A stretch of 64,000 nt of DNA from an uncultured Bacilli bacterium (GTDB lineage: Bacteria > Bacillota_I > Bacilli_A > RF39 > UBA660): the NCBI GenBank assembly GCA_934162445.1, contig CAKPIT010000003.1:64928-128927 (forward strand), written 5' to 3'. The translations under genes and the position numbers were made by a program. Positions 17,524 to 50,360 of the stretch are shown here, in pieces; the first letter of the stretch is position 1; every line of letters begins with the position of its first letter. The notes below the pieces were generated by a model that was not told the origin of the DNA, ran no database searches, and saw only the letters and a program-made list of their open reading frames with translations.

Positions 17524-17571
17524 AGTATCTTGTGTTATAATATGGCCAGCTTATTGAAAGAAGGGGTAAAT

Positions 17572-18522
17572 ATGTATACAGAAGAGAATACCGTAAAAAG
17601 ATTTCCACTACGAAATATCTTATTAAAAGTAATGGTGGTTATTGTTTTCTTATTATTAGTTATTTTTATTATATCTAAAATATCTACACCAACTGTAAAA
17701 ACAGCATCAACTAAAACTTATGATAAAGTATTTAACAAAAACTTAAACTCGATGGAAAAGGCTGCATTAACATACTATACTAAAGACAATCTCCCACTTA
17801 ATGTTGGAGATGTTAGTGAATTAACATTAAGAGAAATGATTAATAAAGAATTATTAGATTCCTTTACTGATGCTAATAAAAAAGCCTGTGATGTTAATGC
17901 TAGTTCCATAAAACTTACTAAAAATGATAATAATTATACTTTAAAAGTTACCTTAAAATGTGCTAATAAAAAAGACTATAAATTAAGTGAGTTAGGTGAA
18001 TATAAGTATTGTAAAAATACCTTATGTAAGAAAGACTCTTCTAAAGAGGAAAAAGAACAAGATAAAAATACTGATTCTAAAGTAACAGATAAAGTTCCAA
18101 TTACAAAAGAAGAAACTAATACATCAAGTAGTCAAAATAATTCAACTACTAAAAACAATACGCAACCATCTAAACCATCCACATCAACAAAAACTGCATC
18201 TAAATCATATGAATACAAAAAAGTAACACCTAAGGTTTTATCAAAATGGAGTAGTTGGAGTCCTTGGGCTTACAATAATGATGGTTATCAAGAAATTAAA
18301 TGTAATAGTACTGATAGTACTTGTCTAAAAGAAATTCAACTATATAGTAGAACCGAATATATTGGTACTCAAAATGGTGAAAAACTATATGGTAAAGTAA
18401 CATACTATAGTTATCGTACACGAAGTGTTGTTAGTGAAGAGCAAATAGATATTAAATGGAGTAGTTATAATGATACTAGCTTACTAAATAATGGTTATAG
18501 CTACACTGGAAAAGAAAAATAA
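17572..18522 (+). CDS. Hypothetical membrane-anchored, Cys/Thr/Ser-rich surface protein
   Basis: Start placed at the ATG after RBS AAGGGGT and a TATAAT box (17535-17540); N-terminal TM helix then a Lys/Thr/Ser-rich extracellular region with scattered Cys. Confidence 0.4.
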   Translation: MYTEENTVKRFPLRNILLKVMVVIVFLLLVIFIISKISTPTVKTASTKTYDKVFNKNLNSMEKAALTYYTKDNLPLNVGDVSELTLREMINKELLDSFTDANKKACDVNASSIKLTKNDNNYTLKVTLKCANKKDYKLSELGEYKYCKNTLCKKDSSKEEKEQDKNTDSKVTDKVPITKEETNTSSSQNNSTTKNNTQPSKPSTSTKTASKSYEYKKVTPKVLSKWSSWSPWAYNNDGYQEIKCNSTDSTCLKEIQLYSRTEYIGTQNGEKLYGKVTYYSYRTRSVVSEEQIDIKWSSYNDTSLLNNGYSYTGKEK

Positions 18523-18534
18523 GGAGTGATAATT

Positions 18535-19827
18535 ATGAATAATGAAAAAAGAAAATATACAGTAGATGCCATCTACTGGTTAAACAAAGAAGATTTAGAA
18601 GAAGGAATGCCAAGATATATAGCTGTTCGTAAAGATAAAGAAACAGGAGCTTATTCATGGTATTTTACTGATGATGATATTAAAGGAAGAACTTTAATTA
18701 GCAATTATTTAAAAGATAGTGGTTATTCTAAAAAGACTGATACTCTAGAAGATATTGCTGAAAATAATTATAAATTTATAAGAGGAATTAAAAAGCCATA
18801 TTATGCCGCTGTTTATTATGCTAGTGCTACTAATAAATCATTAGCAACTGAATTTGATGAAACTTATCTAAGATATCAAAATGGTGAAGATTTAGATAAA
18901 GAAGCTTCTTCTCAAGAAGAACAAGTTACTGAAGAAAGTACCAAGAAAGTTGGTTTCTTTACAAGATTAAAAAATAAGATTCAAGATAAAGTTCAATCAA
19001 AATTATCTAAAGAAACAAAAGGTAAAGGTAAACATGCTTTTGTAAGAGTAGCTGCTGTTATGACTGCTTTAGTATTAGGTATTGGAGGTCTTTGTAAATT
19101 ATCAAGAAAAAATAATCCAGCGGATAAAGGAGCAAGAATTGTTACTGAAAGTACAACTAACACTAAAGTTCCTACTACTAATAAGTCTGAACCAGTTACT
19201 AACCCTTCTAGTAATGAAGTAGTAAATAAAGAAGAAACAGTAACACCTGCTACAACTTCATGTACTTATAATAGCAATAGAGAAAATCAAATGGGTAAAT
19301 ATAATGTTTACAATCCATCTCCAAGCGATGAAGGCTTTACTGCTCCAGATAAAGAATTTCAAGATCCTAATGCTAAAATAGATGATGTAAATACTCCATC
19401 AACCCCAACAAATCCAAGTGATACGCCATCAATCATTGAAGGTGAAGAACCAATAAATAATGGTAATAACAATAATAACAGTGGAGAAACTATTGATGTT
19501 GACGGTGATAATATTGACTATAAAGATAATTTAACAGGAAATGCTGTTGGAAACATTACTAAAGATCCAACTGATGATAAATCTAATGAACCATTACCAA
19601 ACCCTGATGATACTGCAATAGATAATGGCTTTGATATGAGTAATAGTGAATCAACAGATAATTATGTTCCTGTTTATCAAAAAAACTCTCTAGAAGATGC
19701 TGTTACTGAAACAATGACCGCTCTTGAAAATGGAGAAAACGTTAATATGGTATTTGATCCTAATACAAATACATGGAAAACTGAACAAGTTCCCGTTACA
19801 ACTCAAACTGAAGGTTTAAGCAAATAA
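18535..19827 (+). CDS. Hypothetical bitopic membrane protein with a disordered Asn/Thr/Pro/Asp-rich C-terminal region
   Basis: Start placed at the ATG 8 nt after AAGGAG; a ~185-aa cytoplasmic-looking domain, one central TM (AFVRVAAVMTALVLGIGGLC), then a ~230-aa low-complexity tail. Confidence 0.4.
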   Translation: MNNEKRKYTVDAIYWLNKEDLEEGMPRYIAVRKDKETGAYSWYFTDDDIKGRTLISNYLKDSGYSKKTDTLEDIAENNYKFIRGIKKPYYAAVYYASATNKSLATEFDETYLRYQNGEDLDKEASSQEEQVTEESTKKVGFFTRLKNKIQDKVQSKLSKETKGKGKHAFVRVAAVMTALVLGIGGLCKLSRKNNPADKGARIVTESTTNTKVPTTNKSEPVTNPSSNEVVNKEETVTPATTSCTYNSNRENQMGKYNVYNPSPSDEGFTAPDKEFQDPNAKIDDVNTPSTPTNPSDTPSIIEGEEPINNGNNNNNSGETIDVDGDNIDYKDNLTGNAVGNITKDPTDDKSNEPLPNPDDTAIDNGFDMSNSESTDNYVPVYQKNSLEDAVTETMTALENGENVNMVFDPNTNTWKTEQVPVTTQTEGLSK

Positions 19828-19885
19828 GAATAGAAAACTTTACTATCTATTCTTTTTTTGTTACAATAATAAAGAAGAATAGTGG

Positions 19886-21667
19886 TTGATTTGTATGATA
19901 AATGATTTCAAAACTTTAAAATTAGAACCAGTAAAAGAACTAGATCAAGGTTTAAAAAATTTTCTTAATGATCTTGAGATGACTATTGAAACTGAAAAGA
20001 TAAATGCCATTAAGACTTTAACCAATCAGCTATTTAGTCACTATATTAATCTTATTGTAACTATTCAAGATAGCCTAACTAAAGAAGAACTTGCCACCTT
20101 TACGGCAAAAGAAGAAGAGTATGAACAAGCTATAACCAAGCTTAAAGAAAATGCCACCTCCCTAGAAACTATCAATAATCTTTATCAAGATATAGAAACA
20201 AGTTATAATGACTTAAAAACTTTAAGTACCAAAAAACTAGAAACCAATGCCATCTATAAAGAATTTAATGATTTAATTATGAAAATAAATGTTAATCTTG
20301 ATCTTTTAGCTAATATTTCTATACCCGATAATGAAGAAAAAGAAATAAAAGAGTTAATCACTAATTTTAATGATACCAAAGATAAAGAATTTTTAACACG
20401 TCTTTTAAATAAAACCCAAAATCTATTACAAGAAGAACCATCATCTAAAACTTCTTATCAAGTTTTTTCTCTTTTTACTGACATAACCCCTAAAATTAAA
20501 GATACTTATACTTTAATCCAAAATGATCTAACATATATTAAATACCACTTAATAGATAATAGTTTTTATTATGCTATTATTAAGCAAAAAGAAGATCTAG
20601 ATTCATTAATTAAAGAATTTAAACCTATAACTAATCTTATCCTAGATAAAGAACATATCATTAAAACTTGTGAAGAAATCATTAAAAACATTGAAATATA
20701 TTATAATATTAAAGAATATGTTACCTTTTTGATAGCTACCAAAAAAGAACAAGACTTCTTAAAATACCAATCTATTTTAACCGATTATGAATCAAAACTA
20801 AAAAGTCAATTTTCTTTTCTTCATGAACTTGCATTATTAGTTAATCATAAACCAAGTAAAATGTATCCTACTTTAGTCTATAATGGTGAACCATTTTCTA
20901 AAAGTACAAGTAATACTTTAACCGAAGATTCTCTTATTGCTAATATTTTTATGAACTATCAAGAAGATATTAATTTAGATACCAAAATGATTTTAACCCT
21001 TATTTATGACCATGATGTAGTAGATGATTTATATAATGCTAATTATAATGGCCACAAAAAAGAAATCAATAACTATACTAAAATTAGGAACTATTTAAAT
21101 CTAAGACTAAAAGAAATGGAAGAGTTGAAAACTTCTTCTCTAATAACAACCACTTTAAAAAAAGAGGATATATCCCTATATAAAGATGTCAATACCATAA
21201 TTGATATACAAATTGCTATTATTATTTGTGATAAAACATATAAAGAAGGGCAGGGCTTCTATGCTTTAGAAGACTATCTTAAATCAAACACCTTACAAAA
21301 ATTCACATCAAAGTATGGTTGCCGTAATCTTGTAAAAACTATTAACCGGCCAACTCTAATCAAACTCTTAGGAGAAAATATTTTAAAAAGATATCTTTTG
21401 GATAATCACAATCCGCAAATTACTTCGTTCCTAGATCAAACATTACTATCTAACAATTGTTCTCCTAATGATTTCGTTAACAAGTTAATAACTACTCCTG
21501 ATATTTTAAAACTAGCCATCTTTGACTTTAATTACAACTTTTTAGATAGTACTTCTGAAGATTCATTAACTGTCGTTAAAACAATTAAAAATACTGATCT
21601 TGCTAATGATAATTTAACCACCAGATGTATAAATCTCCTAATAAATATTAAAAAATATGATAAATAA
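19886..21667 (+). CDS. Hypothetical protein (large, helical/coiled-coil-like)
   Basis: 593 aa, no TM and no recognisable catalytic motif; followed by a hairpin (21724-21741) and a weak terminator (21774-21816). Confidence 0.4.
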   Translation: MICMINDFKTLKLEPVKELDQGLKNFLNDLEMTIETEKINAIKTLTNQLFSHYINLIVTIQDSLTKEELATFTAKEEEYEQAITKLKENATSLETINNLYQDIETSYNDLKTLSTKKLETNAIYKEFNDLIMKINVNLDLLANISIPDNEEKEIKELITNFNDTKDKEFLTRLLNKTQNLLQEEPSSKTSYQVFSLFTDITPKIKDTYTLIQNDLTYIKYHLIDNSFYYAIIKQKEDLDSLIKEFKPITNLILDKEHIIKTCEEIIKNIEIYYNIKEYVTFLIATKKEQDFLKYQSILTDYESKLKSQFSFLHELALLVNHKPSKMYPTLVYNGEPFSKSTSNTLTEDSLIANIFMNYQEDINLDTKMILTLIYDHDVVDDLYNANYNGHKKEINNYTKIRNYLNLRLKEMEELKTSSLITTTLKKEDISLYKDVNTIIDIQIAIIICDKTYKEGQGFYALEDYLKSNTLQKFTSKYGCRNLVKTINRPTLIKLLGENILKRYLLDNHNPQITSFLDQTLLSNNCSPNDFVNKLITTPDILKLAIFDFNYNFLDSTSEDSLTVVKTIKNTDLANDNLTTRCINLLINIKKYDK

Positions 21668-21880: not shown

Positions 21881-21908
21881 TTGACAATCGCAAATAATAT
21901 GATAAAAT
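21881..21908 (+). promoter_or_regulatory. Sigma-A-type promoter with extended -10 (TTGACA-16-TGaTAAAAT)
   Basis: TTGACA at 21881-21886, TG at 21900-21901, TAAAAT at 21903-21908; the small ORF RBS follows about 20 nt downstream. Confidence 0.5.
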
Positions 21909-22124: not shown

Positions 22125-23558
22125 TTGATTACATTACAAAATTTACTAAACAAAATAAAAGAATATAATTCAGAAGAAGTAAAAGTAGTAGAAAAAGCCT
22201 ACGAATATGCTAATGTTTTACATCAAGGTCAAATGAGACAAAGTGGCGAACCATATATAAGTCATCCTTTAAATGTAGCCTATATATTAGCAGAAATGCA
22301 CGCTGATAAAGATACAATATGCGCTGGCCTTTTACATGATACGTTAGAAGATACTAGTATTGCAAAAGAGGATATTGCTCATGAATTTAATCAAAATGTT
22401 GCCAATTTAGTAGATGGAGTAACAAAATTATCCAAGATGAATTTTTCATCTAAGCAGGATCAAAATTATGCTAATACAAGAAAGATAATAACTGGAATAA
22501 CAGATGATGTTAGAATAATCATCATCAAACTTGCTGATAGACTTCATAATATGAGAACATTAGGATTTAAATCTGAATTTAAACAAAAAGAAAATGCACT
22601 TGAAACAATGGAAATATTTGTTCCTCTTGCTTATTATATTGGAGCGTACAGAATTAAATCTGAATTGGAAGATTTATCTCTTCAATATTTAAAACCAGAT
22701 ACATATAAAAATATTGAAGAAAGAAAACTAAAATTAGAAGAATCAAGTAATGCGTGTTTAAATGAGATGTTTTATAAAATAAAAGCTTTATTAGATAATC
22801 AAAACATTCCAAATGAAATAAAAATAAGAACAAAAAACATTTATGGTATATACAAAAGATTAAGCGAAGGCCACAAATTATCTGATATACATGATTTATT
22901 ATCACTTAAAATAATGGTAGATGAAATAGCTAATTGCTATCTTACCCTAGGAATGATTCACAAAGAATATCATCCAATCAATGATAAGTTTAAAGATTAT
23001 ATTTGTAATCCCAAAACTAATATGTATCAAAGTTTACATACAACAGTATTTGGTCCAGATGATAGATTAGTTCAAACCCAGATAAGAACTTTTGCAATGG
23101 ATAGAGTAGCCTCATTTGGATTAACCGCATATTGGAATGAACAAAAAGGTAAAGCAAGAGATATAATGCAAGAAAACTTAAGACAAAAATTTCAGTTTTT
23201 TAAATCTTTAATAGAAATTAATTCCATGTTTGGAGATAATCAACAATTTGTAAAACAAGTTAAAAACGAATTATTTGCAGACAGGATATATGTTTATACT
23301 ACCAAAGGTGATGTTATTGAATTACCAAAGGGGTCCACGCCAATAGATTTTGCATATAAAATTCATACTGATATAGGTAATACAATGATTGGTGCATTTG
23401 TTAATGATGAATATGTACCAGTTGATTATATATTACAAAATAAAGACAGAGTAAAAGTTATTACAGATGATTATTCTTTTGGTCCAAGAGAAGAGTGGAT
23501 TGAAAAAACACAAACTAGTTTAGCAAAAAGAAAAATTAAAGAATTTAATAGAAAATAG
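22125..23558 (+). CDS. Truncated long-RSH: HD (p)ppGpp hydrolase + RelA/SpoT synthetase + TGS domain, lacking C-terminal ZFD/ACT domains
   Basis: TTG start 5 nt after GGGAGGTG; HD motif HPLNVAYILAEMH...LLHDTLEDT; synthetase motifs RTKNIYGIYKRL, DIHDLLSLKIMV, YQSLHTTV; TGS IYVYTTKGDVIELPKGSTPIDFAYKIHTDIGN; 477 aa versus 717 aa for the canonical Rel at 48207. Confidence 0.8.
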   Translation: MITLQNLLNKIKEYNSEEVKVVEKAYEYANVLHQGQMRQSGEPYISHPLNVAYILAEMHADKDTICAGLLHDTLEDTSIAKEDIAHEFNQNVANLVDGVTKLSKMNFSSKQDQNYANTRKIITGITDDVRIIIIKLADRLHNMRTLGFKSEFKQKENALETMEIFVPLAYYIGAYRIKSELEDLSLQYLKPDTYKNIEERKLKLEESSNACLNEMFYKIKALLDNQNIPNEIKIRTKNIYGIYKRLSEGHKLSDIHDLLSLKIMVDEIANCYLTLGMIHKEYHPINDKFKDYICNPKTNMYQSLHTTVFGPDDRLVQTQIRTFAMDRVASFGLTAYWNEQKGKARDIMQENLRQKFQFFKSLIEINSMFGDNQQFVKQVKNELFADRIYVYTTKGDVIELPKGSTPIDFAYKIHTDIGNTMIGAFVNDEYVPVDYILQNKDRVKVITDDYSFGPREEWIEKTQTSLAKRKIKEFNRK

Positions 23559-24844: not shown

Positions 24845-25834
24845 ATGGATAAAAAATTATTATATTATTCAGAACTAAATAATTATTTTTTACAAAAAGA
24901 TTATAATTGTATTAAACCATTTCCCGTTGAAAATAATAATGATACTATTTTTTTAACAGCTGGTATACAACCAATTTTGAAACAATTTAGAGAAAATAAT
25001 TTATTAAATTCAAAAAAAGTCTATGTTTCGCAACCAGTTATTAGAACGCAATTTATGAACAGTTTATCTGAAGGATCTTCACTAGCATTTATTAATTCAA
25101 CAACCGCTGGATTTAATATATCTGAAAATGAGCATAAAAACTTAGTTAAAGATTGGTTAGAATTATTTTCTATTGTTGGTTTAAAATCATCTAACATCAC
25201 TACATATAGTAAAAATTATGAACGTATTTGGGGAGATTTATTGGTATCCGGAGAAAAAACATTTTATTATTATAATGGCTTGGAATTAGGTGATACAACA
25301 TTTTTTACCAAAATATCTAAAGATAATTGTAATATTGGTATTGAAACAATAAGTGATGTTGGATTTGGCTTAGAAAGAATAAGATGGTGTGTAAACAAAT
25401 CTTCATATTTTGATTTGTATAGCGATAGTAGTGCTATATCACCCCCAATCAAAGCTTATTTATCTGCACTTGCTCTATTGTGTGTAAATGACATTAAACC
25501 ATCAAATAAAAATGCAGGTTATAGATATAGAATGTTTTCTAAAAAATTAGCATTTCTTTTAAATGGGCACGAATTATCTTTTAATGAAGAAAAATATTTG
25601 ATAGAAAGTATAAGATATTGGTCTGAATGGCAAAAAAATGATAATAATGTTGACATTATACTTTTTAAAAAAGAGTATGTTAGGAACTGTAATAGATATA
25701 TAATTGATACATTAAATCGAGAAGGATATAAAAATTTATCTGGAATTGACATTAATATTTCAAGAGAAGAAATGCAAAAAAGATTAATTTCTTCTGGTGT
25801 AAAGAAAGAAAAAATAAAAAAATTATATAAATAG
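24845..25834 (+). CDS. Stand-alone alanyl-tRNA-synthetase catalytic-core homologue (class IIc aaRS fold), lacking tRNA-recognition, editing and C-Ala domains
   Basis: Collinear matches to the E. coli AlaRS N-terminus: NDTIFLTAGIQPILKQF vs DPTLLFTNAGMNQFKDVF; VYVSQPVIRTQ vs ATTSQRCVRAG; DVGFGLERIRWCVNK vs DTGMGLERIAAVLQH; PSNKNAGYRYRMF vs PSNENRGYVLRRI; only 329 aa. Confidence 0.65.
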   Translation: MDKKLLYYSELNNYFLQKDYNCIKPFPVENNNDTIFLTAGIQPILKQFRENNLLNSKKVYVSQPVIRTQFMNSLSEGSSLAFINSTTAGFNISENEHKNLVKDWLELFSIVGLKSSNITTYSKNYERIWGDLLVSGEKTFYYYNGLELGDTTFFTKISKDNCNIGIETISDVGFGLERIRWCVNKSSYFDLYSDSSAISPPIKAYLSALALLCVNDIKPSNKNAGYRYRMFSKKLAFLLNGHELSFNEEKYLIESIRYWSEWQKNDNNVDIILFKKEYVRNCNRYIIDTLNREGYKNLSGIDINISREEMQKRLISSGVKKEKIKKLYK

Positions 25835-26632: not shown

Positions 26633-26688
26633 CTTTTCTTTAATTAAAATATAGTCTATAATAAGTAAAGAGAAAAGGAGTGGTAAAA

Positions 26689-28002
26689 ATGATTAGTAAA
26701 CCTAAAGGAACTACAGATATAATCGGTTCTGATGCTAAGATTTGGAAATATGTTGAGAAAGTAATTGATTCTTTCATGGAAAAATATAATTATAACTATG
26801 CAAGAACCCCAATTTTTGAAAATAGTGAATTATTTCACCGGGGAATTGGTGATACAACCGATATTGTAACGAAAGAAACCTATGATTTTAAGGACCGTGG
26901 CGATCGTAATCTTACTTTAAGACCCGAAGGTACCGCTGGTATTGTCAGAAGCTTTATTGAAAACAAACTTTATGCTACTAGTAGTCTTCCTGTTAAACTT
27001 TATTATAATGGCACTATGTATCGTTATGAGCGTCCTCAAAAAGGAAGATATCGGGAATTAAGTCAATATGGAGTAGAGGTACTAGGTAGTTTTGATCCGA
27101 TGATTGATGCCGAAGTTATCTCTCTTGCCTATAATATTAACAAAGCTTTAGGCCTAGCTGACACTGTTATTCATATCAATAGTCTTGGTGATAATGAGTC
27201 ACGTGCTAATTACCGTGAAGCTTTAAAAGCTCATTTTAAACCGCATTTAGATGACTTATGTGATGATTGTAAAAACCGTTATGAGAAAAACCCTTTACGT
27301 CTTTTAGATTGCAAGGTTGATAGTAACAAAGACTATTTTAAAGATGCTCCAAGTATTCTTGATTATTTAAACGAAGAAAGCAAAAACTACTTTGATACGG
27401 TAATCTCTTACTTAGATATTTTAAAGGTTAACTATGTTATTGATGACAAAGTTGTTCGTGGTCTTGATTATTATAATCATATTGTTTTTGAACTTATGAC
27501 TGAGGATAATAACTTAGCCCTAGGTGGCGGGGGAAGATATGATCATTTAGTAGATCAATTAGACGGTCCTAAAACCCCATGCGTTGGTTATGCCGTGGGC
27601 CTTGATCGCTTAGTAGAAATATTAAAATCAAGAGATCTTATTCATCTAGATGATGCCGTTGAAATTTTTATCATGTATGTTAATGATGAAGAGAAATCAT
27701 ATGCCATCTATCTTAGCAATGAATTAAGAACTGCTGGTTTTAAAGTTGAAACTGAGTACATTAAACCAAGTTTAAAAAGTGAATTTAAACGGGCTGATCA
27801 CTTTAACAGTAAATACCTAATAATTTTAAACAGTACCGACTTAAATGAAGGCGTTGTTACCATCAAAAACAACAAAACTAAAGAAGAAGAAAAGATAATG
27901 CTTGAATATCTTATTTATTACTTTGATGAACATTTAGCTGATGAACTAGAAGAAGATGAATGCTGTAATCATCATGAAGAAGAGGAGAGTCACCATGAAT
28001 AA
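26689..28002 (+). CDS. hisS: Histidine--tRNA ligase
   Basis: Class II motifs; HisRS-specific RYERPQKGRYREL and GGGRYD; start at the ATG 8 nt after AAAGGAG. Confidence 0.95.
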   Translation: MISKPKGTTDIIGSDAKIWKYVEKVIDSFMEKYNYNYARTPIFENSELFHRGIGDTTDIVTKETYDFKDRGDRNLTLRPEGTAGIVRSFIENKLYATSSLPVKLYYNGTMYRYERPQKGRYRELSQYGVEVLGSFDPMIDAEVISLAYNINKALGLADTVIHINSLGDNESRANYREALKAHFKPHLDDLCDDCKNRYEKNPLRLLDCKVDSNKDYFKDAPSILDYLNEESKNYFDTVISYLDILKVNYVIDDKVVRGLDYYNHIVFELMTEDNNLALGGGGRYDHLVDQLDGPKTPCVGYAVGLDRLVEILKSRDLIHLDDAVEIFIMYVNDEEKSYAIYLSNELRTAGFKVETEYIKPSLKSEFKRADHFNSKYLIILNSTDLNEGVVTIKNNKTKEEEKIMLEYLIYYFDEHLADELEEDECCNHHEEEESHHE

Positions 28003-29314
28003 AATTTATTTTAAAGATTTAAGAAATTATATTGATAAAGAAATTGAACTTAAAGGATTCGTTGATAGTATTAGAAATCTTCAATGGGTTCAATTCCTAA
28101 TTTTAAAAGATAGTACCGGAAAAGTTCAAGTAACCATTGAAAAAAGTCCTGATGAAAATAAAGATATGGTTAATCTTGTTGAAAGCCTTACCTTAGAAAG
28201 TACAGTTACTATAAAAGGTATTTTAAAAGAAAACCCTAAAGTAAAATTAAATGGTTTAGAGTTCATTCCTCAAGAAATTGAAGTAACCAGTGAAAGTGCT
28301 AGTGAACTTCCTATTAATATTCATGACCTTAATGCTCAATTAATTGACCAACGTCTTGATTATCGTTTTCTTGATTTACGAAATGATTACAATGCGAATA
28401 TCTTTAAAATTCAAACTGAATTAGTTAACTCTATGCGTAAGCTTTTATTAGAAAAATCATTTACAGAAATTCATACTCCTAAACTAATAGGGGCAGCATC
28501 TGAAAGTGGATCTGAAGTATTTGAAGTAAAATATTTTGATCGTAAAGCCTATCTTGCCCAATCACCTCAATTTTATAAACAAATGGCTATTTGTGCAGGT
28601 TTTGATAAAGTCTTTGAAACTGGTCCTGTTTTTAGAGCTGAAAATTCTAACACCAACCGTCATACCACTGAATTTACTGGCTTTGATGTTGAATTTGCCT
28701 ATCTTGACTCAGTTAATGACGTTATGGATTTAGAAGAAGAATTACTAACTAACGCCTTAAAAGACATTCATGCTAAATACCATGATCTTATTAAAGAAAC
28801 ATACAATACTGAAGTTGTGGTTCCTACTGAAAAATTCCCACGCATTACCTTAAGTGACTTATACAAAGTTTTAGAAGAACGTTATAACTACAAAATTTCT
28901 GATGATATGAAAAATGATACTAATAGTGAAGTTGAAAAGTTAGCTTACCAATACGCTATGGATGAATATAATAGTGAATTTATCTTTATTACTGATTTTC
29001 CAACTCTTAAAAGACCATTCTATCATCACCGTAATGCTAAAGGTTTAACCGAAAGTTATGACTTAATCTGGAAAGGAATTGAAATAACTACAGGAGCTGT
29101 AAGAGAACATCGCTATCAAATCTTAAAAGATCAAGCTACGGAAAATGGTCTAACTAAAGATGTTGAGTTCTATTTAGAATTCTTTAAATACGGTTGTCCA
29201 CCACATGGTGGTTTTGGTCTTGGCGTTGACCGTTTAATCATGCTTCTTTTAGATTTAAAAGGTATTAAAGAATCTATGTTCCTCTTTAGAGGACCAAACC
29301 GACTTGAACCATAA
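27995..29314 (+). CDS. aspS: Aspartate--tRNA ligase, archaeal/eukaryotic-type (type 2, short form without GAD insertion)
   Basis: FRAENSNTNRHTTEFTGFDVEFAY matches the eukaryotic/archaeal AspRS motif 2 (EFTGLD) rather than AsnRS (EFWM); C-terminal FRGPNRLEP; the hisS-aspS synteny is conserved; 439 aa; the ATG overlaps the hisS stop. Confidence 0.7.
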   Translation: MNKIYFKDLRNYIDKEIELKGFVDSIRNLQWVQFLILKDSTGKVQVTIEKSPDENKDMVNLVESLTLESTVTIKGILKENPKVKLNGLEFIPQEIEVTSESASELPINIHDLNAQLIDQRLDYRFLDLRNDYNANIFKIQTELVNSMRKLLLEKSFTEIHTPKLIGAASESGSEVFEVKYFDRKAYLAQSPQFYKQMAICAGFDKVFETGPVFRAENSNTNRHTTEFTGFDVEFAYLDSVNDVMDLEEELLTNALKDIHAKYHDLIKETYNTEVVVPTEKFPRITLSDLYKVLEERYNYKISDDMKNDTNSEVEKLAYQYAMDEYNSEFIFITDFPTLKRPFYHHRNAKGLTESYDLIWKGIEITTGAVREHRYQILKDQATENGLTKDVEFYLEFFKYGCPPHGGFGLGVDRLIMLLLDLKGIKESMFLFRGPNRLEP

Positions 29315-34813: not shown

Positions 34814-34868
34814 TCTTTACATAATAACACATTTTGTGTTATTATTTTTATAAGGTAGGGTGTTATGT

Positions 34869-36716
34869 ATGAAACAATCTATGAAGGAATCTATAAAGCA
34901 ATTTTTTAAAAAATTAAATGAGACCAACATCTCAAAAAAGTATGTTATTATCGTTTTAGGAATCAGTATGTTAATGGTTTGTAGTTATTTTTCTTATGCC
35001 ATGTTTACCGTTTCTAAAGAAAAACAAAATGCTATTAAAATTGTTACTGGTAATTTAACATATAAACTAACAGTTAATGGTACAGAAACAACAAGTATCA
35101 GTGTACCGGCTAAAACTACTAGCGAATATACGGTTATTTTAACTAATCCTAATAGCAGAAAAGCCCGGTTTAACTTTTATTATATTGAAACTACAGATGT
35201 TAAAAATTATCTTAATGTTGGCTATGTTACTAAATCAGGATCAAGTACGCTTCCAAGTGCCACTGGTACTAATATAAATCAAAATGCTAGTAATACTTAC
35301 ACCCTAAAAGTAACTAATAGTAGTTCATCTAGTAAAACTCTTAAATTAGGAGTAGAAGTAGGTCTTGATTATAATAATTTGGCTCTTCCTACCTCATCTT
35401 CTCTTGGTGGAACGGCTAAAATTTTTAGTGAATATACAAATGGTACTACCACGATTGCTGAATATCTTCTTGCTGATAGTTCCAATAGTCTTGATACGAG
35501 TGACAGCGATCAAACCTTTATTACTGGTTCAAGCCCTAATAACTATATTTGGTACAGTGGTAAGATGTGGAAGGCTGTATCTATAAATACCTTCGACAAC
35601 AGTGTTAAAGCAGTAACCGAAAACAGTATTTCCGTAATATCATATAACGAATCAGATGGTATTTTTGATGGCAGTTATATGGATAGTTGGTTAAATGATG
35701 AAACTGTTGATGGTTTCTTAGGTAACTTACGGGAACCAGAAAAATTTTTAAAATCTGATAGTGAATGGAATGCTACTGCTACCACTTCAACTAGTAAACC
35801 AGATGAGAGTAATGTAGTAACAAGAGTTGTTGGCTCCTTAAATTTATATGAATATACCATGAGTTATAAAAATACAACTAGCAGTAAAGGCTATTTAATG
35901 AACGGCAAGTCTTGGTGGTTAATAACTCCTGCTTACAATAATATTGTTAACTATGTTGATATCGATGGTCGTATCGGTACTGATTCTCCTAGTATTGGTT
36001 ATGGTATAAGACCTGCCGTTAATTTTGATGCAAGTATTCAAATTGCCAGTGGTAGTGGTACATCATCTAATCCATATCGCCTAGAAGGTGATAATGATAG
36101 TGCTGTAAGTGATGAATTAAGTGCAAGGTATAGTGGTGAATATGTTGCATTTGGTAAGGGTGACAACAATTTATACCGTATTGTCAGTCATGAAGTAGAA
36201 GGAACAACCAAAATAGTCAGTGTTAAACCTATCATTGATGAATCATCATCAGCTTATAAAGATCAATATGGTAATTACATGTATCAAACTGATATTGGTA
36301 TTGGTAATTTCTTAAATAATGATTTCCTATCTAACTATTTAGAAGATTATCAACCGAGCTTATTAGTAGAGAATGCCGAGTGGTATTTTGGAACAGTTGC
36401 TAGTGGCGGTAGTTATAAATTAGCCAAATATCAAGGTATAGATGACGATACCCTAACTAATGATACTACTACTGCTAGAGTTGGTCTATTACGTTATGGT
36501 GAATTATTTGCAACCACAGGTAGTGATGATAACAATTTTGTTACTATTACTCCAATAAACACAACAACCATGCACTACATTGGTAATTGCGATTGGGATC
36601 TGGAAATATCAACCACTGATGGTGCTGAAATCAAACCAGCCATGTTTATCATGGAAGGAATATATATTGTAGAAGGTAGTGGTACTAAAACTGATCCATT
36701 CATAATTAATGGTTAA
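34869..36716 (+). CDS. Hypothetical large surface protein with N-terminal membrane anchor, Ser/Thr/Asn-rich
   Basis: N-terminal TM YVIIVLGISMLMVCSYFSY followed by a ~580-aa Thr/Ser/Gly-rich ectodomain; no known motif. Confidence 0.4.
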   Translation: MKQSMKESIKQFFKKLNETNISKKYVIIVLGISMLMVCSYFSYAMFTVSKEKQNAIKIVTGNLTYKLTVNGTETTSISVPAKTTSEYTVILTNPNSRKARFNFYYIETTDVKNYLNVGYVTKSGSSTLPSATGTNINQNASNTYTLKVTNSSSSSKTLKLGVEVGLDYNNLALPTSSSLGGTAKIFSEYTNGTTTIAEYLLADSSNSLDTSDSDQTFITGSSPNNYIWYSGKMWKAVSINTFDNSVKAVTENSISVISYNESDGIFDGSYMDSWLNDETVDGFLGNLREPEKFLKSDSEWNATATTSTSKPDESNVVTRVVGSLNLYEYTMSYKNTTSSKGYLMNGKSWWLITPAYNNIVNYVDIDGRIGTDSPSIGYGIRPAVNFDASIQIASGSGTSSNPYRLEGDNDSAVSDELSARYSGEYVAFGKGDNNLYRIVSHEVEGTTKIVSVKPIIDESSSAYKDQYGNYMYQTDIGIGNFLNNDFLSNYLEDYQPSLLVENAEWYFGTVASGGSYKLAKYQGIDDDTLTNDTTTARVGLLRYGELFATTGSDDNNFVTITPINTTTMHYIGNCDWDLEISTTDGAEIKPAMFIMEGIYIVEGSGTKTDPFIING

Positions 36717-48206: not shown

Positions 48207-50360
48207 ATGAAAAAAGATTTAATTACCATCGATGATTTGATGGATAAAGTTGATACTTATATAAAAGATCCCAAAGAGCGGGGAGAAATTCTAAAAGCCT
48301 ATTTTTATGCCAAAGAAAAACATCGTGGCCAGTATCGTCAGAGTGGGGAAGACTACATTACCCACCCTTTGAATGTGGCTTTGATTCTTACTAATGTTTA
48401 TGCTGACTATGAATGCCTTGAAGCGGCTCTTTTACATGACGTGTTAGAAGACTGTGATGTCAAAGATGACGAATTTAAAGAAACTTTTGGTTCAGTTATC
48501 TATAATCTAGTTGATGGCGTTACCAAACTATCTCGTCTTCATTTTTCTACTGATAATGAATACTTAATTGAATACTATCGAAAAATTATAGTAGGGATGA
48601 GCGAAGATGTCCGGGTCATTATCGTTAAACTAGCAGACCGTCTTCACAACATGCGTACTCTTTGGGCCATGCCCCCATTAAAACAAAAAAAGAAATCAAA
48701 AGAAGTACTAGAAATTTTTGCTCCACTTGCCCATCATTTAGGTATTCATAAAATCAAAAGTGAGCTTGAAGATTTAGCCTTACGATATTTAAAACCAACT
48801 GTTTTTTATGATATTGCCGATAAACTTAATAAAACTAAAGCGGAACGTGATAGTACCGTTTATGAAATGCAAGATGTTGTTACTAATCTTTTAAATGAAC
48901 ATCACATTCCTCATGAAATAAAAGGCCGGGCTAAAAGTATTTATAGTATTTACAACAAACTTGATAAAGGGAAAAAATTTAGTGATATCTATGACTTACT
49001 AGCTATTAGAATTTTAGTCGACACCGAACAAGATTGCTACTTAGCCCTTGGTCTCATCCATTCGAAATTTAGACCCTTACCCAAACGATTTAAAGACTAT
49101 ATTGCTATGCCTAAACCAAATATGTATCAATCCCTTCATACAACCGTCTTTGGTATTGATGGTTACCTTTTCGAAATTCAAATTAGGACTTATGAAATGG
49201 ATGAAGTCGCTGAAAATGGAATTGCCTCTCACTGGGCTTATAAGGAAAATGGTGGTAGTGCTAAAACTGCTAATTTACAATCCACCACTTCCCAAAAACT
49301 TCAATTTTTCAAAGAAATAATGGAATTATCTAATGACAAAATGAGTAGTGAAGAATTTGTTACCAGTGTTAAAGATGAAGTTTTAAATAACAATATCTAT
49401 GTCTTTACGCCTAAAGGCGATGTTATTGAACTACCTAAAGGATCAACTCCTCTTGACTTCGCTTATAAAGTTCATACGAAAGTAGGGGAGACCACGGTCG
49501 GTGCTTTAATCAACGGTTCCATTGCTCCTCTTGATTATGAACTTAAAAACAATGATATTGTCAAAATTATTACCAAAGTTAATACTCATCCCTCTAAAGA
49601 ATGGCTAAACATCGTTAAAACTACGCAAGCCAAAAACAAAATAAGAAGTTATTTTAGTAAGAGTGAAAAAGAAGTTTTAATCGAGCGGGGTAAAGATTTA
49701 TTAGAAAAAATCTTGAGAAAACGAAAAATTGCCCTTACAGAATTTTACAAAGATGAGCATTTAAAACTTATCTACAAAGAAGTAAAAGTAGATAATCTTG
49801 ATGATTTATACTATGATATTGGTAAGGGTAAACATACTGCTAATAACATCATTAATATTGTTTTCAAAGATGAAGAAGAAAAACCAAAATTATTAAAAAC
49901 AATCACTAAAACTAATATAGATAACACATCATCCATTATGGTTGCTGGTCTTGATAAAGTTAAAGTAACTTTCGCATCCTGCTGTAAACCTGTTTATGGA
50001 GATCAAATAGTTGGTTATATTACTAAAGGTAATGGTATTAGTGTTCATCGTAGTAATTGCCATAACTTAACCACCTTAGAAGACCGCTGTATTGAAGTTA
50101 AATGGACTAAAGCCGATAATTTAAAATACAACAGTATCCTCATCATTAGAACAAACACCTTAGAAAATCGCTTAGCCGATATTATTCAAAGAACCAGTAT
50201 GCTTAATATTAATATTTCCTCAATTAAAACTATTTCAAGAGATGAATATGCTACTTATGAGATGGAAATTTTAGTTAAAGATAAAGATAGTTTGGCGAAA
50301 TTATTACTAGATTTAGAAAATTTACCATATATTACAAGTGTAGAGAGGTTAATGAAATGA
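48207..50360 (+). CDS. rel: Bifunctional (p)ppGpp synthetase/hydrolase Rel (full-length long RSH)
   Basis: 717 aa with HD, synthetase (RAKSIYSIYNKL, YQSLHTTV), TGS, a Cys-containing ZFD (CCKPVYGDQIVGYITKGNGISVHRSNC) and ACT domains; conserved secDF-rel-dtd synteny. Confidence 0.95.
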   Translation: MKKDLITIDDLMDKVDTYIKDPKERGEILKAYFYAKEKHRGQYRQSGEDYITHPLNVALILTNVYADYECLEAALLHDVLEDCDVKDDEFKETFGSVIYNLVDGVTKLSRLHFSTDNEYLIEYYRKIIVGMSEDVRVIIVKLADRLHNMRTLWAMPPLKQKKKSKEVLEIFAPLAHHLGIHKIKSELEDLALRYLKPTVFYDIADKLNKTKAERDSTVYEMQDVVTNLLNEHHIPHEIKGRAKSIYSIYNKLDKGKKFSDIYDLLAIRILVDTEQDCYLALGLIHSKFRPLPKRFKDYIAMPKPNMYQSLHTTVFGIDGYLFEIQIRTYEMDEVAENGIASHWAYKENGGSAKTANLQSTTSQKLQFFKEIMELSNDKMSSEEFVTSVKDEVLNNNIYVFTPKGDVIELPKGSTPLDFAYKVHTKVGETTVGALINGSIAPLDYELKNNDIVKIITKVNTHPSKEWLNIVKTTQAKNKIRSYFSKSEKEVLIERGKDLLEKILRKRKIALTEFYKDEHLKLIYKEVKVDNLDDLYYDIGKGKHTANNIINIVFKDEEEKPKLLKTITKTNIDNTSSIMVAGLDKVKVTFASCCKPVYGDQIVGYITKGNGISVHRSNCHNLTTLEDRCIEVKWTKADNLKYNSILIIRTNTLENRLADIIQRTSMLNINISSIKTISRDEYATYEMEILVKDKDSLAKLLLDLENLPYITSVERLMK

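Follow-up and report, generated by a model that had tools for sequence, protein, structure and literature searches.

AlaL, a protein family derived from alanyl-tRNA synthetase and linked to an S51 hydrolase and an archaeal-type methionine adenosyltransferase

A 64,000-nucleotide stretch of contig CAKPIT010000003.1 from an uncultured Bacilli bacterium (the window) encodes a 329-aa protein that resembles the N-terminal part of alanyl-tRNA synthetase (AlaRS), which raises the question of what such a stand-alone protein does. An open reading frame (ORF) check against the earlier coordinates placed the gene at 24845..25834 (+), with an ATG start and the stop included. It starts 10 nt after the stop codon of an archaeal-type methionine adenosyltransferase (MAT) gene, and GAGGTGAGG forms a strong Shine-Dalgarno sequence directly 5' of its start. 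We call the family that includes the window protein AlaL; both this family and the module that it forms with a Peptidase_S51 protein (S51), MAT and seryl-tRNA synthetase (SerRS) appear to be undescribed so far. A preliminary description of the window was right in kind in proposing an AlaRS paralogue with a non-canonical role, but it was wrong on domain content and missed the partners. All peptide motifs that it quoted were found, in collinear order, in the 329-aa protein (Table 1), and no counterpart of a 48-aa peptide that it mentioned was recognised among the ORFs adjoining AlaL.

Which genes accompany AlaL? Loci were taken from 23 species-representative genomes, 80 metagenome contigs and individual look-ups, and a non-redundant locus counted as informative if AlaL had at least 1.5 kb of sequence on each side (n = 54). 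S51 was adjacent to AlaL in 52 of these 54 loci and archaeal-type MAT in 53; in an earlier set of 31 loci each partner was found 30 times, one of the misses being a contig end. The order was MAT-AlaL-S51 in Bacilli and in one group of Candidate Phyla Radiation (CPR) bacteria, SerRS-AlaL-MAT-S51 in one Woesearchaeote, and elsewhere AlaL-S51-MAT, AlaL-S51-Amidohydro_2-MAT (reversed) or radical-SAM-MAT-AlaL::S51. In distant homologues MAT, AlaL and S51 stay together while other neighbours change. As gene order and strand differ among lineages, this indicates a linkage that is maintained by selection and not inherited synteny. AlaL occurs in uncultured small Bacilli (under the labels 'Tenericutes' or 'Mycoplasma sp. 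CAG:776'), Candidatus Aphodocola, CPR bacteria (Shapiro-, Pace- and Taylorbacteria, Parcubacteria) and one Woesearchaeote of the DPANN archaea. The preliminary description had missed this context, in which S51 and archaeal-type MAT are obligate partners in CPR, DPANN and Bacilli.

The S51 partner carries a GGGNT motif, a G-S-S119-A-G nucleophile elbow, H159 and E186, corresponding to a PepE-type Ser-His-Glu triad, and this triad (S119, H159, E186) is conserved among 25 cassette S51 proteins. AlaL and S51 genes often overlap by a few bases or are closely spaced, and P0236, P0305 and P0343 (568–617 aa) are AlaL::S51 fusions. Together with the locus counts, this shows AlaL to be the obligate partner of a Ser-His-Glu hydrolase that looks catalytically intact. 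Fused, adjacent or overlapping genes would also be expected of a two-subunit amidotransferase, in which S51, through its class I glutamine-amidotransferase-like fold, would feed ammonia to an AlaL acyl-adenylate, following the logic of GMP synthase or MurT/GatD, whose subunits are likewise sometimes fused and sometimes adjacent; weak matches of S51 to GATase_3, SNO/PdxT and CobB/CobQ models are consistent with this. We nevertheless regard an amidotransferase as very unlikely, given that the nucleophile is the Ser of a PepE-type triad, that characterised S51 enzymes are all peptidases or amidases acting at an alpha-carboxyl, with no glutaminase among them, that metabolism offers no obvious use for a small amino acid amidated at its alpha-carboxyl, and that MAT and SerRS would go unexplained.

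The MAT partner matches solved archaeal MATs from the Protein Data Bank (PDB) at E ~1e-62 with every MAT motif kept, and stays below all NCBIfam MAT equivalog cut-offs (305 versus 481). Locus L003 encodes a canonical MetK 5 kb from the cassette MAT, which can therefore be an additional, dedicated copy. PADLOC defence models gave no match for MAT, AlaL or S51. The tight MAT linkage might alternatively mark AlaL as a non-catalytic, HisZ-like regulator of MAT and S-adenosylmethionine (SAM) homeostasis, sensing SAM or an amino acid in its old adenylate pocket. SAM would be roughly isosteric with an aminoacyl-adenylate, and an Rfam gathering scan of the window returned two tRNAs only, with no riboswitch (SAM included) or T-box. 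Such a sensor is barely credible, however, because it explains neither the obligate, sometimes fused and catalytically intact-looking S51 nor the retention in AlaL of the Mg/ATP-type residues E147 and R178.

How firmly is AlaL tied to AlaRS? The resemblance is remote, as the single sequence has no meaningful match in Pfam, NCBIfam or PDB sequences (none at E <=0.01 in Pfam or NCBIfam). A database search retrieved 137 close homologues, all ~329 aa and all unnamed; in a one-by-one scan of 35 close homologues, seven touched PF01411 (AlaRS) and four GlyQ, all below threshold. An exhaustive profile search yielded 404 family representatives at 50% identity clustering, mostly 370–415 aa long, and the wider-family profile retrieves genuine AlaRS of 860–920 aa at E 1.8e-14. 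Comparison of the family with an AlaRS alignment by hhalign gave a probability of 99.3% (E 2e-20), spanning residues 4–365 of E. coli AlaRS (reference sequence verified against PDB 3HXU), and structure comparison superposed ~290 residues on AlaRS, including the helical recognition domain. The AlaRS homology of AlaL is real despite its remoteness. GlyQ, the bacterial glycyl-tRNA synthetase (GlyRS) alpha subunit, was rejected as an identity, with structural and sequence scores clearly below those for AlaRS and no glyS partner. Profiles, alignments and scans thus support the earlier view of a stand-alone AlaRS-derived paralogue without editing and C-Ala domains. That such a paralogue is uncommon holds only among cultured organisms and not overall, given the 404 representatives; no homologue was found in a phage search.

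Several signs indicate that the family is descended from the N-terminal half of archaeal-type AlaRS (PDB 3WQY, 2ZZE/2ZZF/2ZZG, 2ZTG; TIGR03683), its closest relative. Both have the SQP.IR form of motif 2, followed by W, LE.G/A.. and D.G.GLER..W (the last with ER..W after motif 3) and by a helical domain with PSN..GY..R; both lack the insertions of E. coli AlaRS; and the best NCBIfam matches of the family are to TIGR03683. In contrast to archaeal-type AlaRS (~900 aa), AlaL proteins have 329–400 aa, no editing or C-Ala domain, a shortened recognition domain, FIN.. instead of FEM.. after motif 2, changed and variable pocket positions 150 and 152, and near-constant S51 and MAT partners. They also lack a D400-type reader of the G3:U70 pair. 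A four-cysteine, zinc-ribbon-like N terminus (C-x2-C ... C-x4-C) varies hardly at all across the Parcubacteria AlaL subfamily (residues 26–47 of P0305; also in P0236, P0343, P0322 and P0297); it is also found at the N terminus of the archaeal-type AlaRS P0300 and is missing from Bacilli AlaL proteins, the window's included. In one CPR lineage a conserved cysteine-rich ORF of 69–75 aa (C..CPEC...C), with no Pfam match, lies immediately upstream of AlaL (Table 1); as AlaL of that lineage has no N-terminal Cys ribbon, this ORF may be a split-off ribbon module.

Archaeal-type ancestry, the N-terminal Cys ribbon included, would also suit a sole or split AlaRS of reduced genomes, formed by AlaL with S51. 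A split alaS exists in Nanoarchaeum. No canonical alaS was seen in the window or in the flanks of 110 loci (up to 10 kb on each side of a gene), although this covers ~1–2% of each genome and therefore carries no weight. Whereas genuine AlaRS is highly conserved, AlaL is extremely divergent: its top score is 54.5 bits for a curated AlaRS cut-off of 744.7, and no family member passes any curated AlaRS model. As pocket residues also differ among subfamilies and the family is patchily distributed in CPR and DPANN, we consider a sole or split AlaRS highly improbable.

How much of AlaRS is left in AlaL? According to the preliminary description, the protein stops at the point at which the tRNA-recognition domain should start. 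However, the signature helix of this domain, P301-SNENRGYVLR-R311 in E. coli (including N303), aligns by hhalign with PSNKNAGYRYR of AlaL, ~115 residues after motif 3 align with AlaRS only and represent its helical domain, and a multiple alignment extends AlaL to about residue 441 of E. coli AlaRS. Residues ~200–329 are a compact homologue of that helical domain, and because a shortened tRNA-recognition domain is kept, AlaL is not a bare catalytic core. No match to PF07973 or PF02272 was found in AlaL, and the protein stops at residue 329, with neither an editing domain nor C-Ala. Judged from these alignments, AlaL is a compacted N-terminal half of AlaRS in which only the editing and C-Ala domains are missing. 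Across 351 family members, in which residue conservation was counted throughout, the PSN Asn (E. coli N303, a G3:U70 reader) is kept in 219 and the second Arg of the signature helix in 330. The equivalent of the other G3:U70 reader, E. coli D400 (in LYDTYGFP), is replaced in the alignment by RLxSSGV. Loss of the E. coli GGKHND/K73 loop was dropped as an argument against tRNA binding, since that insertion is likewise missing from AlaRS of the archaeal type and from some bacterial AlaRS.

Is the catalytic site of AlaL still competent? The arginines of motifs 2 and 3, R67 (E. coli R69) and R178, are both present on alignment, each in 350/351 members, and G175, E177 and R178 of motif 3 each in at least 347. 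Likewise kept are the equivalents of E. coli F90, which stacks on adenine (F82, 350/351), W170 (W129, 342/351), E209 (E147, 315/351), G237 (G173, 318/351) and D235, which binds the alpha-amino group (D171; Asp in 341/351, Glu in nine). The AlaL alignment is therefore nearly invariant at the positions with which AlaRS contacts ATP and, on a small amino acid, the alpha-amino and carboxylate groups, which makes the pseudo-enzyme hinted at earlier unlikely. In contrast, the divergence of the amino-acid pocket, also noticed then, was borne out: position 150 (E. coli N212) is Asp in 226, Glu in 32, Val in 66 and Ile in 15 members, and position 152 (E. coli V214) is Thr, Asn, Val or Ser. Even so, the pocket is predicted to stay small, in the Ala/Ser/Gly size class.

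Which known systems combine such elements? In ascamycin biosynthesis AcmF, a truncated AlaRS-like protein with aminoacylation and tRNA-recognition domains only, moves Ala from Ala-tRNA, made by the cluster AlaRS AcmD, to the 5'-sulfamate of an adenosine analogue, and the hydrolase AcmE of the same cluster removes that Ala again (PMC12945691). Compared by description only, AcmF shares with AlaL the two-domain truncation, a hydrolase partner and, in some AlaL loci, a genuine aminoacyl-tRNA synthetase (aaRS). However, the ATP/Ala activation residues lost in AcmF (N219Q, D232E) are kept in AlaL, the partner aaRS of AlaL is SerRS and not AlaRS, its hydrolase belongs to S51 and is not an alpha/beta-hydrolase, and its hosts are CPR, DPANN and small Bacilli instead of Streptomyces. 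MccG resembles the cassette partner in being an S51 hydrolase whose triad contains serine. It confers immunity to microcin C-like peptidyl-nucleotides, and in processed microcin C it has been shown to break the carboxamide bond between aminoacyl group and nucleotide (PMC9239234). It belongs to clade V with Asp as third triad residue, whereas the cassette S51 has Glu186 like PepE, and MccA and MccB genes are not present at the cassette. According to the literature, S51 peptidases (PepE, cyanophycinase) act on an N-terminal residue whose amine is free, cutting at its alpha-carboxyl.

A second compact, stand-alone AlaRS N-terminal homologue is the 'alanine--tRNA ligase-related protein' of Rhizobium plasmids (300–311 aa; for example WP_193445849.1), which matches the AlaL family at 99.2% in hhalign with only ~22% identity. 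Canonical AlaRS is a far nearer relative of this protein (TIGR00344, E 1e-24), which keeps the N212 and D-T-x-G (D400) equivalents and has no S51 or MAT neighbour; instead, its gene is divergent from a RES-Xre toxin-antitoxin pair and adjoins VapBC. Examples are L035 8896–9831 (NZ_CP140638.1) and L036 8872–9774 (NZ_CP018233.1), with 76 plasmids in all. Other truncated aaRS paralogues (EpmA/GenX/PoxA, AsnA, HisZ, SerRS-like carrier-protein ligases, GluQRS, MshC) come from other parent synthetases, none being AlaRS-derived, and have no obligate S51 or MAT partner. Unlike the SerRS-like amino acid:carrier-protein ligases, AlaL has an AlaRS-type core, and no carrier-protein gene is among its recurrent neighbours. 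Reviews of aaRS paralogues describe no AlaRS-core paralogue of the AlaL kind, and a literature search for the AlaL-S51-MAT gene combination found nothing.

A frequent fourth cassette member, overlooked in the earlier reading, is SerRS. The full-length enzyme (Seryl_tRNA_N plus class II core, identity verified) is part of 21 of the 54 informative loci (~40%), and overall it lies <=175 nt from the core in ~27 loci from Bacilli, several CPR lineages and the archaeon, on either side. This frequency is far above chance for one housekeeping gene, yet SerRS is not obligatory. tRNA-Ser genes are found nearby in L003, L020, L026 and L027; when checked for a G3:U70 pair, they showed an ordinary A3-U70. 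An ARAGORN call of 'tRNA-Ser(cga)' inside the S51 coding sequence of L033 (2633–2715) is almost certainly a false positive, because its anticodon position is odd and it has no proper acceptor stem.

What, then, could these four genes do together? We tentatively favour a reading in which AlaL links a small amino acid, probably serine-sized, to a SAM-linked, adenosine-type acceptor, from which S51 removes it. AlaL would bind an adenosine nucleotide or nucleoside in its class II pocket together with Ser, Ala or Gly, serine being favoured because of the SerRS and tRNA-Ser linkage. The aminoacyl linkage would be formed to an acceptor that depends on SAM synthesis, either SAM itself or a SAM-derived adenosyl compound. 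As donor, AlaL could use its own ATP-dependent aminoacyl-adenylate or, following the logic of AcmD and AcmF, Ser-tRNA(Ser) from the neighbouring SerRS. S51 would be the matching deacylase of the aminoacyl-nucleoside or -nucleotide bond, acting in proofreading, turnover or self-protection as do MccG and AcmE, and variable neighbours (glycosyltransferase-like proteins, HAD phosphatases/nucleotidases, Amidohydro_2, carbamoyltransferase, radical SAM) would decorate or process the product. By analogy with these systems, this is the only reading that would give all four genes a job, with an experimental precedent for each type of step. The product might even belong to a new metabolite class, an aminoacylated adenosyl compound built by an AlaRS-derived enzyme and policed by an S51 deacylase, which we consider possible but doubtful. 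Such a product could be SAM carrying a seryl or alanyl group, or an aminoacyl-adenosine devoid of phosphate, for which SAM would donate the adenosyl group and MAT would recycle the methionine.

Several observations weigh against the proposed aminoacylation of an adenosyl acceptor. Neither AlaL nor S51 has a known SAM-binding fold, and linkage to MAT might stem from archaeal-type housekeeping genes having been transferred together. An AcmF-like donor route is no close match, since AlaL keeps the activation residues that AcmF lost. No SerRS gene (serS) was found next to the cassette or elsewhere in the 64-kb window. Because pocket positions 150 and 152 vary among subfamilies, a single amino acid cannot be named from sequence. 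An AlphaFold2 (AF2) model of a natural AlaL::S51 fusion shows both domains folded (pLDDT 85.9), but as its pTM is only 0.68 we make no claim on juxtaposition of the active sites. Moreover, a tRNA acceptor would agree just as well with the retained AlaRS recognition helix (PSN, GYRxR) and with neighbourhoods rich in aaRS genes.

With a tRNA acceptor, AlaL would carry out a non-canonical aminoacylation, charging a tRNA or tRNA-like molecule with a small amino acid, S51 would be a non-homologous substitute for the AlaRS editing domain in pre- or post-transfer editing, and MAT and SerRS would be co-regulated translation-related neighbours. The extent of the superposition on AlaRS and the retention of the PSN and GYRxR signatures and of all catalytic residues are consistent with such charging. 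An AlaRS-type small pocket requires editing against Ser and Gly; the AlaL::S51 fusions would mimic the AlaRS order of aminoacylation, recognition and editing, and the preference of S51 enzymes for a residue with a free amine would suit this task. The neighbourhoods are also full of aaRS and tRNA genes (HisS, AspS, SerRS, LeuRS, MetRS, CysRS and MiaA among the encoded proteins). Against this, the MAT linkage, near-universal despite rearrangements, would go unexplained, the D400 equivalent and C-Ala are lost, the loci have no tRNA gene dedicated to the cassette, the stems of tRNA-Ser genes close by are ordinary, and characterised S51 substrates are small molecules, not tRNA. Charging of a tRNA is the main rival of the favoured reading, but we hold it to be rather unlikely.

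A special case of the favoured reading, differing only in the purpose of the product, is an aaRS inhibitor of the Trojan-horse type with self-immunity: a stable mimic of seryl- or alanyl-adenylate would be made from SAM or ATP, with S51 as an MccG-like immunity hydrolase and the adjacent SerRS as the protected or extra copy of the target. Besides MccG itself, the target-aaRS gene within the cluster has a precedent in AcmD of the ascamycin cluster. Albomycin and agrocin clusters also contain target-aaRS genes. Lineage-specific tailoring genes around a constant core and the second MAT copy in L003 would fit as well. However, no conserved exporter or precursor peptide was found at cassette loci; the Bacilli cassette is surrounded by housekeeping genes and seems to be inherited vertically (22 loci share the same neighbours); and the linked SerRS diverge at ordinary housekeeping rates and are absent from many loci, including the window. 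An inhibitor is thus distinctly unlikely.

Which further neighbours recur is specific to sub-lineages: RelA/SpoT homologues (10 loci), Amidohydro_2 (7), Cof-type HAD (6), a glycosyltransferase-like protein after S51 (6), NT5C-type HAD (4), NodU-type carbamoyltransferase (4), inositol-1-phosphate synthase (4), radical SAM (3), MiaA (3) and PIG-L (1). Such a constant core with lineage-specific hydrolases and transferases is more suggestive of a pathway for a small molecule than of a translation factor, although aaRS genes are also abundant in the neighbourhoods. A mycothiol/bacillithiol-like pathway (Ino1, GT4-like, PIG-L, HAD and an aaRS-like ligase) was set aside as a lead only, because each of these neighbours occurs in 1–7 loci and none explains MAT. 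The radical SAM neighbours of L031 and L032 are not orthologous. In one CPR lineage S51 is followed by the glycosyltransferase-like protein (~350 aa), and P0373 (PF00534; L060 2602–4308) is a fusion of the two. The glycosyltransferase-like gene is downstream of S51/AlaL in L042, L043, L048, L054, L056 and L057, in L056 and L057 directly after AlaL with no S51 detected, and in L043 an inositol-1-phosphate synthase gene is located upstream of MAT. In P0262 (674 aa) AlaL is fused to a ~300-aa C-terminal domain that has no Pfam match and by eye is nucleotide-sugar-transferase-like. P0362 (an AlaL fragment plus BacA) was ignored as an apparently chimeric or disrupted gene call. Three Bacilli loci have genes of defence or abortive-infection type (SduA_C/Shedu, Abi_2, Fic) within a few kb of the cassette (Table 1).

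In the window, AlaL is the third gene of a co-directional run encoding a RelA/SpoT paralogue, MAT, AlaL, S51, hisS, aspS, dnaG and sigA. No terminator-like sites were seen between these genes, and the best promoter-like site is at 21881–21908. The 477-aa RelA/SpoT homologue thus probably heads the same transcription unit as MAT-AlaL-S51. A full-length RelA of 717 aa with AH/RIS and ACT domains is encoded at 48207–50360 (+), <26 kb from this paralogue, to which it is 48% identical. The short copy is intact in L014 and L015, and only fragments remain in L007, L009, L011 and L022; having decayed in four related loci, it was rejected as a stable cassette member. RelA/SpoT homologue genes also flank the cassette in the CPR loci L027, L038 and L045. 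Downstream, hisS (26680–28002) and aspS (27956–29314) overlap by ~47 nt with longest-ORF starts and by 8 nt with the starts called in L001; the AspRS is of the short type (439–452 aa) and combines a PF00152 core with an anticodon-binding domain of the OB fold. Upstream of the operon, 17530–21667 (+) contains three consecutive ORFs of 330, 433 and 593 aa; the 593-aa ORF had no Pfam match in the scan, and the corresponding called genes of L001 have no precomputed Pfam match. A 618-aa ORF at 34860–36716 (+) matched no Pfam family at E <=1e-5.

Table 1. Coordinates of the AlaL cassette, of motifs in the window AlaL protein and of further genes mentioned in the text. Positions refer to the window unless a locus or AlaL residues are given.
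Feature	Location	Strand	Evidence or remark
RelA/SpoT homologue, 477 aa (HD, synthetase, TGS), without C-terminal regulatory domains	22125..23558	+	Pfam
Archaeal-type MAT, 417 aa	23581..24834	+	PF01941, E 3e-98, 329.7 bits versus cut-off 27
AlaL, putatively ligase-like, from archaeal-type AlaRS	24845..25834	+	Class II aminoacylation core ~1-190; compact helical tRNA-recognition-type domain ~200-329
Motif 2 region SQPVIR67TQ...F82, residues 62-91	25028..25117	+	Alignments
Motif 3 D171-V-G-F-G-L-E-R178, residues 171-178	25355..25378	+	hhalign
PSNKNAGYRYR, signature helix of AlaRS tRNA-recognition domain	25499..25531	+	hhalign
Peptidase_S51 partner, 224 aa	25890..26564	+	PF03575, E 4e-22, 79.3 bits versus cut-off 23.9
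FLTAGIQPILKQF	AlaL residues 36-48		Quoted earlier, found
SQPVIRTQ	AlaL residues 62-69		Quoted earlier, found
FMNSLSEGSSLAF	AlaL residues 70-82		Found, collinear
DVGFGLERI	AlaL residues 171-179		Quoted earlier, found
PSNKNAGYRYR	AlaL residues 219-229		Quoted earlier, found
Cysteine-rich ORF	L029 6761-6988; L039 519-728; L040 533-760; L041 354-581; L047 2890-3117		
Defence-type genes	L003 12023-13060; L004 475-1404; L005 2341-3009		

AlaRS is the synthetase with the most uniform architecture across life, and AcmF was the sole characterised paralogue of its catalytic domain found in the literature. AlaL adds a second and much larger AlaRS-derived family of small, soluble-looking proteins, in which the site looks competent for chemistry and the editing domain appears to have been exchanged for an unrelated S51 hydrolase. 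Its linkage to MAT and SerRS across three very distant groups with reduced genomes points to conserved, uncharacterised biochemistry in CPR, DPANN and uncultured gut Bacilli, the organisms with the least understood metabolism. Were the acceptor a tRNA, the family would represent a new solution to the serine/glycine proofreading problem of AlaRS. If it is SAM or another adenosyl compound, a new metabolite class would follow, and the aminoacylated adenosyl compound could act in these ultra-small symbionts as a signal, as an effector directed at aaRS or as an aminoacyl donor that needs no tRNA.

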